Below, in pieces: positions 34,007-40,616 of a DNA stretch of 64,000 bases. The position numbers and the translations under genes are program-made. A model generated the notes under the pieces. It was not told the origin of the DNA, did not search any database, and was given only the letters and a program-made list of their open reading frames with translations. Numbering within the stretch: position 1 is the first letter of the stretch; every line of letters starts with the position of its first letter. Source of the DNA: Candidatus Marinacidobacterales bacterium (GTDB taxonomy: Bacteria; Acidobacteriota; Vicinamibacteria; Marinacidobacterales; DATDRI01); assembly GCA_965219415.1 (NCBI GenBank), contig CBDCNP010000002.1, forward strand, positions 2,208,001 through 2,272,000, in the 5' to 3' direction.

Positions 34007-36211
34007 CTATTGGATCCGCGATTGCCCGCCGAGTTGGGTGCCGAACGACCCGATGTTGGCCAGCGTGATGCCAACCCGGAAGAGATTCTCGTCCCGAACC
34101 GTACCGAAACGGTATCGGGCCCACTCCGCCATGAAGCCGCAACACTGAATGTTGTAGTCGACACTCGCCCGGACCAGGTTCAGCTCGGCCCGCTCGACGT
34201 CGTAGGCGGACTCGAAGCGCAATCGAACGGTGCGTGTCACGTTCAAACTGGTAACGCCGCGAAGGTTCCGGCGCTCTCGGCCGGAAGTAAGTTGTACGCT
34301 TTGGGCCAGCGAGCCGCTGACGTTGCCCCACCCACCACCGTAACTCCCGACCAAGCTCATCGAGCGCATCCTCTTGAAATTGACGTCATACTCGAAATTC
34401 CAGGAAGCGGCCAGTCGGCCGGTAGGACGGAAGCGTAGCTTCGAAGTAATCGGGGAATAGCTGCTGGGAACGCCGTCCTCGGTGAAAAAGGGCGTACTGA
34501 ATTGGCGATCGTAGAGGCTGGCATCGACCTGGAGAAAGTATCTCTGTGCAAGCGTCCAGGTGAGAAACTCGTAGGGAACTGCTTTGTTGCTCTTGCCAAT
34601 TTTGCGCTTGGCCAGAAATCGATTCACGAGAGAAAAGGAAAACTGGTTGGTACCCGGAACGTAGTCGTTGGAGTCGAACTTGGGGATGTCTCCGAAGTTG
34701 TCGACCAGCGAGCGATAGCTCCAAATGAGCTGCGGCTCGATAACGTGCTTGTACTTTTCCGCATATCCGTTCCCGGGGGTATTGAAAATGCGAGAAAAAG
34801 TCGGTCCCCTTACGTCGACACGAACCTCGCTGTAAGTTCGGTCCAAAGCATCTCCGGTCACTTCTCCAGCCGAGTTAGTTTGCTGCGAGTAGCGCGTGAA
34901 GCGCGTGATGAACGAGGTTCGCGCGGTCAGGAAAGGCCACACATTGAAAGGGTAGGAAATAGTTGGCAGGACGTCGTAGCGTTGATAATCAACCAGATCG
35001 TCTCGCACACTTCGGGAAAACGAAGAAGCGGAAGTGCTAAAACCGAACAAGATCGGTGTCGGGCCGATCTTCGTCTGCCTACCCTGGAAAGCGACGCGGG
35101 GAAGTATCTCCCGGAAACTAATTCTATCTGTGAAAGACGTCTCATTGCGATCGTAGAGGAAACGTAGGGTGTAAGCCGACCAGGATCGAGCCACGTTCAC
35201 GGTGGCTCGCTTCGAGCGGCGGGTCAAATCTTTATAGCTCTCCTGGAACGTTTGCTGGAAGGCGAAGGAGCTGAAGTAATCGACGCGCGCAATCGTCGAG
35301 AAGTCGCCCGGAAGCCGCTGGTTAACGTTCGCCCTGATCTGCCATTCCTTCTGTTCTAAAACCTTGTCGTCGATGTAGTAGGACTCGAAGCGACCCCGCG
35401 ACGCTCCAGAAAGCAGGTAGCGGTACTCGGTTCCTAGCCCCACCCCACTCTGGGAAAACCAATCGAAGTTGATGGTCGCATCGTGGGAGCGGCTGATGGC
35501 CCAGAAGAAACCCTGGCTGACCATGAACCCCTTGAAGCTAGAGTTTCCTATTTGGGGAAGCAGCAAGCCCGTCGATCGGTTTTTTTCATCGATCGGGTAG
35601 TACAGATACGGCAGATAGAAGACCGGCAACGACTTCACCTTAAGGAACGCGCCGTGGAGGGAAACATGGTGGTCGCGACGGATGATGGCCTTTCCCGAGG
35701 TGAATCGCCAGCGAGGCGTCGGCTGAGCGCAAGACGTGAACGCTCCTCGTTCCACGACGTAGATATCGTCCGACTTCTTCTCCACCACATCACCTTGGAA
35801 GTAAAGATCGTTGCCCGAGCTTCCGGAGGCGTTGTAGAACCTGCCCGTCCCGGTCTCGAGATCGACTTCCATCCGATCACCAACGATCTTTTGGTTGCCC
35901 TGCTGAAAGACGACGTTGCCTTCCGCGACGACTCGCATCTCCTCGTTCCAGAAATCGACTTTGTCTGCCGAGATGCGGATGTCCCCCGACACGATGTCCA
36001 CGTAGCCGGTCGCCTTGACATGCCCCTTCTCGATCTGTTCTTGCTCATCGGCGTTGAGAGTGACCGAGCCGGGCGGGAGAGGAGCCGGTGATTGGGCCTG
36101 TTGAGCCTGCTGGGATTGTCCTTTTTGCCGAGAAGAGTCGTCTTCTTGGCCGTTTTGCCCGCGGGCGACGGTCGCTGCGGTTAGAAGAAAGATAATTATC
36201 AGTCTCAACAT
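34007..36211 (-). CDS. lptD: LPS-assembly outer-membrane protein LptD
   Basis: Signal peptide, OstA-like N-domain, FTSC..P.P.W, RSTGLLLP, beta-barrel, QCC near the C-terminus. Confidence 0.88.
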   Translation of the reverse strand: MLRLIIIFLLTAATVARGQNGQEDDSSRQKGQSQQAQQAQSPAPLPPGSVTLNADEQEQIEKGHVKATGYVDIVSGDIRISADKVDFWNEEMRVVAEGNVVFQQGNQKIVGDRMEVDLETGTGRFYNASGSSGNDLYFQGDVVEKKSDDIYVVERGAFTSCAQPTPRWRFTSGKAIIRRDHHVSLHGAFLKVKSLPVFYLPYLYYPIDEKNRSTGLLLPQIGNSSFKGFMVSQGFFWAISRSHDATINFDWFSQSGVGLGTEYRYLLSGASRGRFESYYIDDKVLEQKEWQIRANVNQRLPGDFSTIARVDYFSSFAFQQTFQESYKDLTRRSKRATVNVARSWSAYTLRFLYDRNETSFTDRISFREILPRVAFQGRQTKIGPTPILFGFSTSASSFSRSVRDDLVDYQRYDVLPTISYPFNVWPFLTARTSFITRFTRYSQQTNSAGEVTGDALDRTYSEVRVDVRGPTFSRIFNTPGNGYAEKYKHVIEPQLIWSYRSLVDNFGDIPKFDSNDYVPGTNQFSFSLVNRFLAKRKIGKSNKAVPYEFLTWTLAQRYFLQVDASLYDRQFSTPFFTEDGVPSSYSPITSKLRFRPTGRLAASWNFEYDVNFKRMRSMSLVGSYGGGWGNVSGSLAQSVQLTSGRERRNLRGVTSLNVTRTVRLRFESAYDVERAELNLVRASVDYNIQCCGFMAEWARYRFGTVRDENLFRVGITLANIGSFGTQLGGQSRIQ

Positions 36212-36386
36212 CGAGCGAGACCCGATCTCGACCCCCTTAGTCCTTTTGGACGAACGCATTATGCACCGTGGGCACACGTTTTTCCAAGCCCACTTTCCTT
36301 ATCATCCCGTAACTGGTTCCCTAGAGGGACTTACGCTCCTACTGGCGCTTTGCCTGCGGACAGGTCATGCTTACGGTCTTAGGCGA

Positions 36387-37823
36387 ATGACCGTCACGGC
36401 CGTGAAACCAGAGGTCTTGCTCGTATCGTGTTACGAGCTTGGCCACCAGCCCATGGGGCTTGCCAGCCCCATGGCGTTCCTTGCCCGAGCCGGGTTCCCG
36501 GTCACCGCGGTCGATGTCTCGGTCGACTCTTTGGAGAAGCACGCGGACCTCGTCCGTGGGGCCCGCCTTGTCGCCATCTCCGTTCCCATGCACACCGCCC
36601 TGCGTTTGGGCTCACGTGTCGCACGGCGAATCCGGGAATTGAATCCGAGCTGCCATCTTTGTTTTTACGGACTGTACGCAACCCTAAATCGTGGTTACCT
36701 CCTACAGAACGGCGCGGACTCGGTCTTGGGAGGAGAGTCGGAGCAGTCTTTGGTACGCCTCGCGGAAGGACTTGCCCAAGGCGGCGACACCCTCCCAACC
36801 GTCTCCGAGCCGGTGCTGGAGCGACTTCGGTTCCCGGTGCCACTACGTCGCGGCCTGCCGCCACTCGAGAAGTACGCCCACTTGGAACGCGATGGAAACC
36901 ACGGCCCGGTCGGCTATGTCGAAGCGAGTCGTGGATGCCTGCGCCACTGCTTGCATTGCCCGATCCCGCCGGTATACCAAGGTCGCTTCTTCGTAGTACC
37001 CCAGGACGTCGTGCTCGACGACATTCGCCAGCTCGTCGACTCGGGAGCCACCCACATCACATTTGGGGATCCCGATTTCTTGAACGGACCGGGGCATTCA
37101 CTGGCGGTGGCCCGTACGCTCCACCAGGAGTTTCCCGAGCTCACGTTCGACGTCACCGCGAAAGTGGAGCACATTCTGAAACACCGAGCCTTGTTACCGG
37201 AGCTCCGCCGCCAAGGCTGTATCTTCGTCGTGTCCGCCATCGAATCCCTCAGCGATCACGTTCTGAATCAGCTCGACAAAGGACACACGCGCCAAGACGC
37301 CATCGAAGCGGTGAGCGCTCTCCGACTCGCCGGAATCGCGCCACGCCCGACATGGGTCTCGTTCACACCCTGGACGACGCTTCGGGACTATCTCGACGTC
37401 CTCGAGTGGGTGGATGAGGAGGGGATTATCGGTCATGTCGACCCCGTACAATTCGCGGTCCGCCTGCTCGTTCCCCCCGGCTCCTTACTGCTAGAGAGGG
37501 CGGCGATTCAGCCCTTCTTGGAACCACTCGTGCCAGAGAGGTTCACTCATCCGTGGAAACACCCCGACCCGAGAATGGATCTCCTCCACGATCGCGTCAG
37601 CGAGCTCGTCGAGGCATCCGTTTCGAATGACGAGGATCCTTTTGAGACTTTTTCACGCATCCGCGAATTGGCTTGGTCCAAGCTCGAAACGGGAAAACCC
37701 CCGCCAGAGCGAAGAGGAAGGTCCGAGCGTGGAACGCACCCCCCTCGGCTCACCGAAGCGTGGTTCTGTTGATCAGAGCCCACCGAGGGCCAGTTCGGCC
37801 CGCTGGAGAATCCGGGCATTTGA
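36387..37823 (+). CDS. CUAEP/CCAEP-tail-type radical SAM protein, probable selenoprotein (TGA 37770-37772 read as Sec)
   Basis: B12-binding-like N-domain (SCYELGHQP, ISVPMHTA); SRGCLRHCLHC cluster motif; C-terminus PRLTEAWFC-TGA-SEPTEGQFGPLENPGI-stop; hairpin after the TGA. Confidence 0.85.
37780..37806 (+). promoter_or_regulatory. Candidate bacterial SECIS hairpin
   Basis: GGGCC-AGTTC-GGCCC stem-loop with lower CCA/TGG pairing; loop begins 19 nt after the in-frame TGA and has G at position 2. Confidence 0.6.
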
Positions 37824-37872
37824 GGGCGAAACGCAGACCGCCTATGATGAAGCGGAATAGGGAGAGTATGAG

Positions 37873-38469
37873 ATGAGCGAAGAGATCAAGATCACCGCCG
37901 AGCCGAAGGATACAGAGACCTGCAGCTTCATCATCGATCGACCGGTCCATGAAGAAGGCTCCGCCTACTTTGACGATCCAGACCGGGCCAGTGGCTCTCC
38001 GTTACCTGAAAAACTCTTTGCCCTGGGTGGCGTCAAGACCGTTCTGGTGCAGGACAACAAAGTGACCATCACCGTGGGAGACACCGGCGCCGATTGGCTT
38101 CCGTTGGCCAAGCAAGTCGGTGCGACCATCCGCACCGTAATCGAATCGGGCGAGAAACCCATCTCCGCCTCCCTGCTCGACTCCATGCCTCCCTCCGAGC
38201 AGATCAAGAAGGTGATAGAAGAGCTCTTCATTCGGGAGATCAACCCCGCGATTGCCGCGCATGGCGGTTTCGTGGAGCTGCTAGATGTGAAGGGGAACGA
38301 AGTCTATCTCCGTCTTGGAGGTGGGTGCCAAGGTTGCGGGATGGCGGATGTTACCCTGAAACAGGGAATAGAAACCTCCATCCGCAAGGCGGTGCCCGAG
38401 ATCGGAGCCATCATGGACACGACCGACCACGCGGCGGGAAGAAACCCCTATTACGCGCCCTCCAAGTAG
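37873..38469 (+). CDS. NfuA/NifU-like Fe-S cluster carrier (Nfu N-domain + NifU C-domain)
   Basis: SPLPEKLF, INPAIAAHGG, GGGCQGCG, TLKQGIE, DTTDHAAGRNPYY. Confidence 0.9.
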   Translation: MSEEIKITAEPKDTETCSFIIDRPVHEEGSAYFDDPDRASGSPLPEKLFALGGVKTVLVQDNKVTITVGDTGADWLPLAKQVGATIRTVIESGEKPISASLLDSMPPSEQIKKVIEELFIREINPAIAAHGGFVELLDVKGNEVYLRLGGGCQGCGMADVTLKQGIETSIRKAVPEIGAIMDTTDHAAGRNPYYAPSK

Positions 38470-38716: not shown

Positions 38717-39394
38717 TGATGCAACAGATGGGTGTTAAGGTCGTTTGGTTCTGCACGAGCTTGAGCAACCCCAACGAGACGAGCCTCTGCCAATCTCGAT
38801 GCCTTGAATTTCCTGCGCGCCCTCAAGGGGGAGCGCATCGAGGGGGAAGCAACGATCCCCATCGCCGGTCAAAATCGGCGTCTCAGCAATTCCAACCTGG
38901 ATGAAGCGATCGACTGGTTCGGAGAAATGGTCGCCGGCTATTTCCAGCGTCAGGGGATAGATTCGCCGTTTTACCTGGTTCCCATTCCGGACACCAACAC
39001 GACGTTGGAATCGACTACTGGCCCCTGGACGTCGGTGACAGCGATAGCTATTGCCTCCAAGTTCGAAGGTGATGTGGAAGCTCTAGACGTTCTTCGCTGG
39101 AAAAAGAATCTCTCCCACCTCAGTGCGGAGGCGCAGGACTCCACTCGGCTATACGAGAACCTAGCCCTGCTCGGAAAGAACAAATGGGACAAACCGGTAG
39201 TGCTGGTGGACTACCTGGCGGCTAACGCGGCGCGAGCCCAGGCCTGTGAGGCGTTCTTGAGAGAGAACGGCGCTCGCGTCCTTCTGTGTGTGTTTGCGGG
39301 AAGAATCGTCCCGCAGAAGCCCGAGAAGAACTTTGCGGTTTTCAAAGCCGAGGTCGCGGGAATCAACCCTGGTCCCCCTCGCTCGGCGGACTGA
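38717..39394 (+). CDS. Degenerate type I phosphoribosyltransferase-fold (ComF-like) protein; probable frameshift near 38800
   Basis: YLVPIP, DVLRW, KPVVLVDY..., L.E.GA pattern. The N-terminus probably comes from the 38717 ATG frame. Confidence 0.5.
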
Positions 39395-40616
39395 TGACGA
39401 ATTCGAGGCAAGCGGCAGCCTCTCTGAGAGCGCTTTCGACGGCGGCGAGAGTTTCGGCGCGGGCAAATATGAAACCGAGATAACTGGAGCCTTCCGGGAG
39501 GGGCGCCAAGATCTTGCCGAGGTGTGAGGTGATCGTCACCTCTTGAACTCCGGAAACCGCCTCCGCCTCTCTCTCCCCCCGGACGCCTTTGAGAACGCCC
39601 GCCTGAGGAATCGGCATCATCATGACACCGGATGCAACGGACTCGCGGGTTAGTGTACTGACATCCATCCCCAATGCGTGCCGAAGAAGCAACTCCTCGA
39701 GCGAAAACCCCACACCGAACCTGAGCGACCGAGAACAAAGCCCCCCGATGGATCGCCCGGCGATCTCGATGACCCACACCCCCTCGGAGTTCAACCGAAG
39801 CTCGGCGTGGATGGGTCCCTCTCGAAGCCCTAGTGCCTCGGCCGCTTTTGCGGTGGTAGCCGCGATCGCAGATTGACGTCCCTCGGACAATCTGGACGGG
39901 GTCACGTAAATCGTTTCTTCGAAGAAAGGCCCCTCTAACGGATCGGGCTTGTCGAAGAGAGCGAGCACTTTGAGCTCTCCCCCAGTCATGACTCCCTCGA
40001 GGGCGACCTCGACACCCGATACGTAGTCTTCGACCAATATCTGGCGAGCCAACGGCCCGCCACGACGCACTAGATCGGGGTCGCGAAGAATCGCTTTTAA
40101 TCGTTCGAAAGCCGAAACGAATTCATGTTCGTCATTGGCGCGCATCACACCGCGGCTCGCCGCAAGGAAGACGGGTTTCAAAACACACGGGTATCCGACA
40201 CGGCTCGCTATGTCCTCTGTGTCATCGGCTACCGCAAAGAGCCGGTGGGCGGGAACGAGCACAGCTCCCGAGAGCATTTCTCTCATCACATGCTTCAAAC
40301 GGGTCGCGGTGGCGGCCTGGGGAGAATTGTGGGCGAGTCCGACCGCCTGCGAAATGGCAGCCGCTATGACTGCGGTGTCCTCGTCGACCGAGACCACCGC
40401 CTGGAAGGGGTAGTCTCGAGAGAAAGAAAGGGCTTTTTCCGCCGCCGAGTCCGGGTCCAGGAAATCGACGGTAAGTAGCGAGCCCGGCTCTCGGCCCTCC
40501 ATCGTGCTGGGTTGCTCGGAGACGACCACCACCTCCACACCGAGCCTCCCGGCCGCCGCCATGAAATCATGGGTACGGTAGGTATTGGTGGGCAACAAAA
40601 GGAGTACGCGAGGCAT
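39363..40616 (-). CDS. ATP-grasp ligase (L-amino-acid ligase-like)
   Basis: GYPCVLKP, ASRGV, LVEDYVSG.EVALEG, FDKPDPL.GPFFEET, HAELR, IEIAGRSIGG. Confidence 0.88.
   Translation of the reverse strand: MPRVLLLLPTNTYRTHDFMAAAGRLGVEVVVVSEQPSTMEGREPGSLLTVDFLDPDSAAEKALSFSRDYPFQAVVSVDEDTAVIAAAISQAVGLAHNSPQAATATRLKHVMREMLSGAVLVPAHRLFAVADDTEDIASRVGYPCVLKPVFLAASRGVMRANDEHEFVSAFERLKAILRDPDLVRRGGPLARQILVEDYVSGVEVALEGVMTGGELKVLALFDKPDPLEGPFFEETIYVTPSRLSEGRQSAIAATTAKAAEALGLREGPIHAELRLNSEGVWVIEIAGRSIGGLCSRSLRFGVGFSLEELLLRHALGMDVSTLTRESVASGVMMMPIPQAGVLKGVRGEREAEAVSGVQEVTITSHLGKILAPLPEGSSYLGFIFARAETLAAVESALREAAACLEFVISPPSEGDQG

Follow-up and report, generated by a model that had tools for sequence, protein, structure and literature searches.

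A predicted radical SAM selenoprotein with a C-terminal Cys-Sec tail and its ATP-grasp ligase partner in a Candidatus Marinacidobacterales genome

Does the TGA at 37770-37772 of this 64,000-nucleotide (nt) stretch of Candidatus Marinacidobacterales DNA, hereafter the window, end the radical S-adenosylmethionine (SAM) gene in which it stands, or is it read as selenocysteine (Sec), and what might the Cys-Sec pair that it would create be good for? Comparative analysis of the locus indicates that positions 36387-37823 very probably encode a 478-residue selenoprotein of the family NF040546, in which the UGA would be decoded as Sec462 by SelB through a hairpin at 37785-37803, giving the tail Cys461-Sec462-Ser-Glu-Pro. 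The gene is part of a conserved set that includes a strictly co-occurring ATP-grasp L-amino-acid ligase and often lies beside a gene for the Fe-S cluster carrier Nfu. The family and its selenoprotein status are already catalogued in NCBIfam, and the enzyme described here is a further member.

The in-frame TGA and the hairpin behind it

An ATG at 36387 on the forward strand opens a frame that reads to ...PRLTEAWFC and then meets the TGA at 37770-37772. A further 16 in-frame codons (SEPTEGQFGPLENPGI) lie between this codon and a second TGA, at 37821-37823, and reading through the first TGA yields 478 residues with Sec at position 462. The original prediction, made from the letters alone, had proposed a hidden selenoprotein on the grounds that the TGA directly follows a Cys codon in a frame that runs on and that a GGGCC/GGCCC hairpin begins its loop, AGUUC, 19 nt downstream; the frame was borne out and the hairpin coordinates agree. 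The features of the gene are as follows.

36387-37769, forward strand: radical SAM enzyme, residues 1-461, ending ...PRLTEAWFC461 (NF040546, PF04055 and PF02310 matches, structural model, Cys conservation)
37770-37772, forward strand: UGA predicted to be read as selenocysteine, residue 462 (TGA in orthologs, Sec machinery, contigs of other runs)
37773-37823, forward strand: post-Sec tail SEPTEGQFGPLENPGI and the predicted true stop, TGA 37821-37823 (reading frame; stretch kept in Cys-form homologs)
37785-37803, forward strand: hairpin of the Sec insertion sequence (SECIS) type (comparative evidence: covariation, stem preserved with Sec and lost with Cys)

The enzyme consists of an N-terminal B12-binding-like Rossmann domain, a radical SAM core with a CX3CX2C motif (C184/C188/C191) and a C-terminal domain. 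A mechanically generated list of open reading frames (ORFs) opens the frame at 36246, and the database copy of the protein has 503 amino acids (aa); this upstream start is disfavoured because it would overlap the divergent LptD-like gene that begins at 36277. As the family profile NF040546 begins at residue 10 counted from ATG 36387, and most homologs start no more than about 10 residues from the conserved LLxSCYELGHQP block, 36387 was kept as the probable start, without proof. The 3' end matters for users of annotation, given that gene calls here and in most databases leave off the last 17 codons: the called protein stops at the Cys, and the catalytic-looking Sec is therefore invisible to anyone who works from it.

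The TGA is conserved far beyond this genome. Among 41 related genomes of the same order, 22 carry an ortholog over the NF040546 cut-off, with exactly one TGA in every one of them; two genomes, G007 (unpublished) and G006, contain further fragments of the enzyme, each again with a TGA, and an ortholog is absent from all 16 genomes of family f3, which are small. At 20 order-level loci the tail reads PRLTExWFC-U-[A/S]EP without exception, although the pattern used to find tails in these and the distant loci itself demanded C-[U/C]-x-E-P. The distant sample comprised 80 loci from Acidobacteriota, Methylomirabilota/Rokubacteria, Nitrospirota, Planctomycetota, Gemmatimonadota, Poribacteria, Chloroflexota and others. 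The codon at the Sec position is TGA in 58 of them, TGC in 11, TGT in 4 and a double TGA in one; the remaining 6 have no tail and, judging from their coordinates, stop at a contig end. Thus, TGA stands in 59 of the 74 informative distant loci and Cys is aligned with it in the other 15, 13 of which belong to Nitrospirota. Database homologs follow the same division, with 97 of 120 clusters stopping exactly at ...WFC and 23 reading CCAEP. The alternation of Cys and TGA followed by the same tail, which the original prediction had named as a check, is hence found at the order level, in distant phyla and in the databases.

The machinery for Sec insertion is present as well. The 8.05-Mb source genome contains selA (569.7 bits), selB (375.8), selD (328.3) and tRNA-Sec (69.7), all above their cut-offs, and ARAGORN reports a tRNA-SeC with the anticodon tca. 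The selD gene (G000:C3:3889655-3890587, outside the window) has one in-frame TGA of its own, so SelD is probably itself a selenoprotein in this genome.

A misread TGC or TGT had been considered from the outset, and in the contigs of public runs that cover the site, taken from three other studies, 37770-37772 read TGA throughout. Contig X3 differs at a single position over the whole stretch and may derive from the source sample, whereas X7 has 11 differences over 36300-38073 and X10 has 6 over 37705-37992. Positions 37746-37964 are also spanned by a 219-nt metatranscriptome contig, which does not establish transcription because DNA may have been carried over into the library.

In the hairpin, GGGCC (37787-37791) pairs with GGCCC (37797-37801) around the loop AGUUC (37792-37796), an extra outer G-C pair joins 37785 to 37803, and the spacing from TGA to loop is exactly 19 nt; the usual rules of SECIS spacing and loop composition were the yardstick for judging it. 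Folded alone, the segment 37755-37835 does not stand out (z = -1.49, not significant; 17 of 200 shuffles do equally well), and the argument for the hairpin is therefore a comparative one. In the 20 orthologous order-level sites, which make up 19 distinct rows, 91.7% of the 7-pair helix is paired, as against 25-59% in slid controls; in four of the seven pairs both partners have changed (G-C to A-U or U-A), and none of 500 shuffles matched the observed covariation score or the paired fraction. The G and U of the loop are invariant in the 20 relatives. In the distant loci, a mean of 4.52 of 5 core pairs form in the 58 TGA forms versus 1.93 of 5 in the 15 Cys forms, and many of the Sec forms scored as four of five in fact have a perfect stem around a 4-nt loop, only with the register shifted. 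The stem is thus kept where a SECIS element would be needed and decays where Cys replaces Sec.

The same constraint can be read from the encoded peptide. The stretch [A/S]EPTxxQ[F/L] past Sec is kept in both Sec and Cys forms, the latter of which need no SECIS, but the Gly-Pro that follows Q-F/L, encoded by the 3' arm of the stem (37797-37802, and likewise in loci L024-L123), is frequent in Sec forms but varies among Cys forms, a pattern typical of coding sequence that is also under an RNA constraint. A Gly-to-Asp change in the 5' arm is paired with a synonymous GGC-to-GGT change in the 3' arm. At the Gly-Pro codons, the RNA stem appears to dictate the protein sequence.

The double TGA mentioned above lies on a contig of a Planctomycetota metagenome-assembled genome (L074:5969-5974), where the tail reads WF-U-U-AEPT, with two consecutive TGA codons in place of Cys-Sec and an intact hairpin behind them. 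Such a tail would be a Sec-Sec dyad, but it is seen on one contig only and so could be an assembly error.

Family, fold and genomic partners

With the TGA read through, the protein matches the NCBIfam profile NF040546, 'CUAEP/CCAEP-tail radical SAM (seleno)protein', with 663.6 bits over a curated cut-off of 500 (657.1 bits, with one TGA, in the genome-level search). Residues 10-471 align to profile positions 1-467 of 468, and the match therefore spans the TGA. The tail family named in the original prediction thus exists, and the two domains attributed to it, a B12-binding-like N-terminal domain and a radical SAM core, were also recovered by Pfam (PF02310, 32.6 bits, barely above the cut-off of 32.1, and PF04055, 49.8 bits). 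The next-best family, already singled out in the original prediction as a likeness, is ArsL (NF040542; 301.5 bits, E = 1e-89, profile positions 1-408 of 423, under its cut-off); all further NCBIfam families have E values of 5e-12 or higher. The family is very large, with at least 8000 clusters at 90% identity among homologs with E <= 1e-30, and highly conserved, with 52-62% identity between phyla. A distant paralog outside the window (G000:C3:3451282-3452316) matches NF040546 with 89.7 bits over profile positions 9-338 and has no TGA; weak matches to about the same profile positions occur in many relatives.

The statement of the original prediction that the family has no assigned reaction agrees with the literature found. 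A full-text search for its name (CUAEP, CCAEP), which did not extend to subscription journals, found a single paper, Haft 2022 (bioRxiv 10.1101/2022.07.06.499078), which lists it among the few CU selenoproteins, calls it uncharacterised and describes its structure and function as not well known. A text search of a 2026 review of the prokaryotic selenoproteome (PMC13188914) found neither the family name nor its accession, and the literature search, with the same coverage, returned no paper on the enzyme-ligase module described below.

The AlphaFold2 model, built with 20 sequences, has a mean predicted local distance difference test score (pLDDT) of 84.6 and a predicted template modelling score of 0.86, with low confidence in the last 40 residues. 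Its best fold matches are AprD4 (top), TsrM, OxsB, MgmA and MiaB, which have in common a Rossmann-like domain and a radical SAM barrel, and no ArsL structure was among them. The likeness to cobalamin-dependent (class B) radical SAM enzymes is one of domain and fold, and AprD4 itself is not known to need cobalamin. By sequence, a search of the PDB found MgmA (9ccb) alone (3.5e-7).

The three Cys of the CX3CX2C motif and C461 are present in all 121 sequences compared, and C461, adjoining Sec, is the only strictly conserved Cys outside the motif. An auxiliary Fe-S cluster on C15, C92 and C278 was considered and rejected as unlikely, each of these being replaced in some members (C92 by Ser in 2 of 121, C278 by Ser or Ala in 4 of 121, C15 by Thr in L125). 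ArsL, too, is described as having no extra strictly conserved Cys beyond those of the cluster and the tail, which weighs against the auxiliary-cluster idea as well.

The variant tail WFC-U-SEP, with Ser in place of the Ala of CUAEP, is real: it occurs in all three genomes of the source genus and at two Methylomirabilota loci. Since the latter use an AGC rather than a TCA codon for Ser, the variant probably arose there separately. Ala follows Sec or Cys in 68 of the 73 distant tails, Ser in 4 and Val in 1; CUSEP is a minor, recurrent and trivial variant.

The gene neighbourhood holds the following features.

34007-36277, reverse strand: LptD-like outer-membrane protein of 756 aa, divergent to the enzyme
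Upstream side of the enzyme, with the LptD-like gene: RmlA
37820-37848, forward strand: promoter-like site (TTGAGG, 17 nt, TATGAT), a consensus match only, overlapping the stop codon of the enzyme and upstream of nfu
37873-38469, forward strand: Nfu-type Fe-S cluster carrier with Nfu_N and NifU domains, downstream of the enzyme
38804-39394, forward strand: ORF of 196 aa between nfu and the ATP-grasp gene, with no Pfam or NCBIfam match
39363-40616, reverse strand: ATP-grasp enzyme of the L-amino-acid-ligase type (ATP-grasp_4, LAL_C2), convergent to the radical SAM gene
Beyond the ATP-grasp ligase: cupin, peptidyl-prolyl isomerase (PPIase) and Ogt

The closest solved structures to the ligase are the L-amino acid ligases BL00235 (PDB 3vot, 1.3e-32) and BacD (3wo1, 1.6e-15), and it lies under every equivalog cut-off of NCBIfam. 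Its distribution follows that of the enzyme closely. Of the 41 order-level genomes, 23 have a ligase ortholog (E <= 1e-30), namely the 22 carriers of the enzyme and G007, in which the enzyme is present as fragments; the other 18 lack both, and none is discordant. The pattern was followed further in 301 evenly sampled genomes of the phylum, where the enzyme was counted as a match to the ArsL profile at E <= 1e-60 and the ligase at E <= 1e-50. The enzyme was found in 49 genomes, the five tails checked all being CU- or CC-AEP, and the ligase in 60; 48 genomes have both, one (G074) the enzyme only, 12 the ligase only and 240 neither, counts to which no P value is attached, as kinship among the genomes makes them non-independent. 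Among the 12 with the ligase only, five are less than 90% complete, and one, G064, is unpublished. In several of the 48 genomes with both genes, these lie far apart or on different contigs. On this distribution, the ligase appears to be a strict co-occurrence partner of the enzyme. None of the 301 genomes contains an ArsL over its cut-off. Some ligase homologs seem to have a TGA inside; in G261, this is simply the stop codon.

The order LptD-like gene, enzyme and Nfu is kept at all 20 order-level loci as far as the contigs reach, and the LptD-like arrangement is not seen in other phyla. Among the 80 distant loci, tblastn places Nfu nearby in 37, always on the strand of the enzyme, and the ligase in 40, on that strand in 36; one or the other is found in 46 and both in 31, with gene order shuffled between phyla. 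Neither is usually nearby in Gemmatimonadota (0 of 7) or Chloroflexota (1 of 6). The LptD-like gene, the cupin and the PPIase were rejected as members of the module, each occurring at only 2 of the 80 distant loci, in the closest relatives. Being the sole NifU-domain gene of the source genome and present in the f3 genomes and G005, which lack the enzyme, Nfu is not a dedicated partner either, and its candidacy as one was weakened accordingly; we read it as a general cluster carrier that is often parked beside what may be a demanding client. It may have its own promoter, since a TATAAT-like box directly past the stop codon of the enzyme recurs in relatives (L029-L038).

Other recurrent neighbours at the distant loci are DUF169 (10 loci, mostly Cys-form Nitrospirota), a CDGSH protein (6 loci), a CBS-receiver protein and an enoyl-CoA hydratase, and an ATG22/major facilitator superfamily (MFS) transporter stands beside the module in 7 loci, mostly of Blastocatellia or other Acidobacteriota. 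NCBIfam gave no match for the representatives of DUF169 and the CDGSH protein, for two other recurrent neighbour ORFs or for the ORF at 38804-39394. In seven Cys-form Nitrospirota loci (L059, L068, L078, L080, L083, L087 and L088), DUF169 rather than Nfu lies between enzyme and ligase. The Vicinamibacterales locus L097 has both DUF169 and Nfu, and in L115 (Planctomycetia) DUF169 is downstream of the enzyme, with Nfu and the ligase upstream. The ORF at 38804-39394 has a counterpart with 91% identity in L045, a relative at genus level, but none in L044, another such relative, and therefore looks like a lineage-specific insertion into the module.

A possible chemistry for the Cys-Sec tail

ArsL provides the most direct guide to what the enzyme might do. 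It is described as cleaving SAM to methylthioadenosine and a 3-amino-3-carboxypropyl (ACP) species and as forming a C-As bond, chemistry that is presented as one of two known exceptions to canonical radical SAM chemistry. Its C-terminal CCxxC motif is reported to bind As(III) through three Cys, which together with the three of the cluster make up its six strictly conserved Cys.

By analogy, the [4Fe-4S]/SAM site of the enzyme might transfer the ACP group of SAM, releasing methylthioadenosine. The flexible tail with its Cys-Sec pair would hold the acceptor, a soft heteroatom, and the outcome would be a methionine-like amino acid, which the ATP-grasp ligase would then join to another amino acid. 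The part of Nfu would be no more than to deliver the cluster or mend it. A methionine-like substrate would fit the preference of BL00235 for Met in the N-terminal position. We put forward this route, ArsL-like ACP transfer to an atom held by the tail and coupling of the product by the ligase, as a tentative proposal. The suggestion of the original prediction that a soft metal(loid) is bound by the Cys-Sec dyad, or that the dyad serves as a redox handle, is likewise drawn from analogy with the As(III)-binding tail of ArsL, which is its sole backing.

Several observations weigh against this picture, beginning with the decoding of the TGA. An Rfam scan of 37600-38000 at E <= 10 returned no SECIS family, only matches at chance level, and no experiment is on record for any member of the NF040546 family. 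Nfu is present in 40 of the 41 relatives, including all 16 f3 genomes and G005, all without the enzyme, and is preceded by the promoter-like site. As regards the chemistry, the 301.5 bits of the enzyme fall short of the NF040542 cut-off of 450, and its tail (Cys-Sec-x-Glu-Pro) offers two chalcogens, whereas the RCCLKC tail of ArsL offers three Cys. Neither arsM nor arsQ, nor any other arsenic gene, is found among the annotated neighbours in the window or the 12 annotated recurrent neighbour clusters. The identity of 52-62% between phyla is high for an enzyme of secondary metabolism. Finally, block means of pLDDT are 44-71 for residues 441-479, which leaves the position of the tail in the model, and with it any reach to the active site, uncertain.

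A rather different use of the tail is a doubtful but genuine possibility, namely that the enzyme carries out canonical chemistry, in which a 5'-deoxyadenosyl radical abstracts hydrogen from a small molecule and Cys-Sec acts as a mobile redox or hydrogen-donating arm, not as a metal(loid) site. The pair would then form a selenenylsulfide, as the C-terminal Cys-Sec of mammalian thioredoxin reductase does. The enzyme shares its CX3CX2C core and class-B-like fold with ordinary radical SAM enzymes, the top fold match AprD4 is a dehydratase, no ars, mer or other metal(loid) genes occur among the annotated neighbours, and the redox handle was among the options raised at the outset. Yet ArsL is by far the closest characterised relative (E = 1e-89 versus 5e-12 for the next family); it also looks canonical in sequence and is nevertheless described as cleaving the other S-C bond, and a ligand site borne by the tail is reported as demonstrated in it.

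It is unlikely, in our view, that the ACP group is placed on a residue of a protein or RNA, as Dph2 does on EF2, with the ATP-grasp enzyme amidating or extending the carboxylate. The later steps of diphthamide synthesis include amidation of the new carboxylate. The very high identity between phyla, the single over-cut-off match per carrying genome (bar the extra fragment in G006) and the housekeeping neighbours in the window (LptD-like, RmlA, Nfu, PPIase) would suit a macromolecular target, but by type the partner is an L-amino-acid ligase of the kind that forms dipeptides (LAL_C2; BL00235, BacD), ATG22/MFS transporters stand beside the module in 7 loci, and no conserved gene for a substrate peptide was seen. 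That translation simply stops at the TGA, or that the codon is a misread TGC or TGT, with the protein ending at Cys461 and the downstream conservation incidental, is highly improbable: gene callers do stop there, as in the 97 of 120 database clusters, the lone fold is not significant and Rfam matched no SECIS, but TGA stands in all 22 order-level orthologs and in 59 of the 74 informative distant loci, aligned with Cys in the other 15. Cys forms retain the peptide past this codon as well, paired positions of the hairpin have changed in step, no part of the Sec machinery is missing and the contigs of three other studies carry the TGA.

ACP transfer followed by ligation, if it operates in this organism, could also extend well beyond it. 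Such a pathway would be found in soil, freshwater and marine habitats, in Acidobacteriota, Methylomirabilota, Nitrospirota, Planctomycetota, Gemmatimonadota, Poribacteria and Chloroflexota. It is conceivable, though we would not rely on it, that the pair constitutes a widespread two-step pathway, in which a second ArsL-type reaction builds a carbon-heteroatom bond on an atom borne by Cys-Sec (for example S, Se, As or Sb) and the methionine-like product is made into a dipeptide. In that case, ArsL chemistry would be a general reaction of housekeeping level and not a rare step of antibiotic synthesis. A very large family, highly conserved between phyla, tied to one ligase and with ArsL as its only characterised relative, may bear on how far ArsL-type chemistry has spread.

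Comparison with known systems

The closest known system is the family NF040546 itself, with which the enzyme shares the order of domains, the PRLTExWFC-[U/C]-xEPT tail and the alternation of Sec and Cys; it departs from the typical tail in having Ser instead of Ala past Sec. ArsL of arsinothricin biosynthesis is homologous over nearly the full length, and both proteins combine a CX3CX2C core with a short, chalcogen-rich C-terminal tail that holds the only other strictly conserved Cys. Unlike in ArsL, the partner of the enzyme is an ATP-grasp ligase and not a methyltransferase. This ligase, in turn, resembles the L-amino acid ligases BL00235 and BacD in combining an ATP-grasp fold with a LAL_C2 domain. 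The other CU selenoproteins listed in Haft 2022 (bioRxiv 10.1101/2022.07.06.499078) are MerB-like SAO proteins, HgcA variants, some MerT proteins and KCU-star. Like the enzyme described here, they have adjacent Cys and Sec close to the C-terminus, for which heavy-atom binding or a role as a redox pair has been proposed, but their folds are unrelated to it, and in the enzyme the predicted dyad is attached to a radical SAM core.

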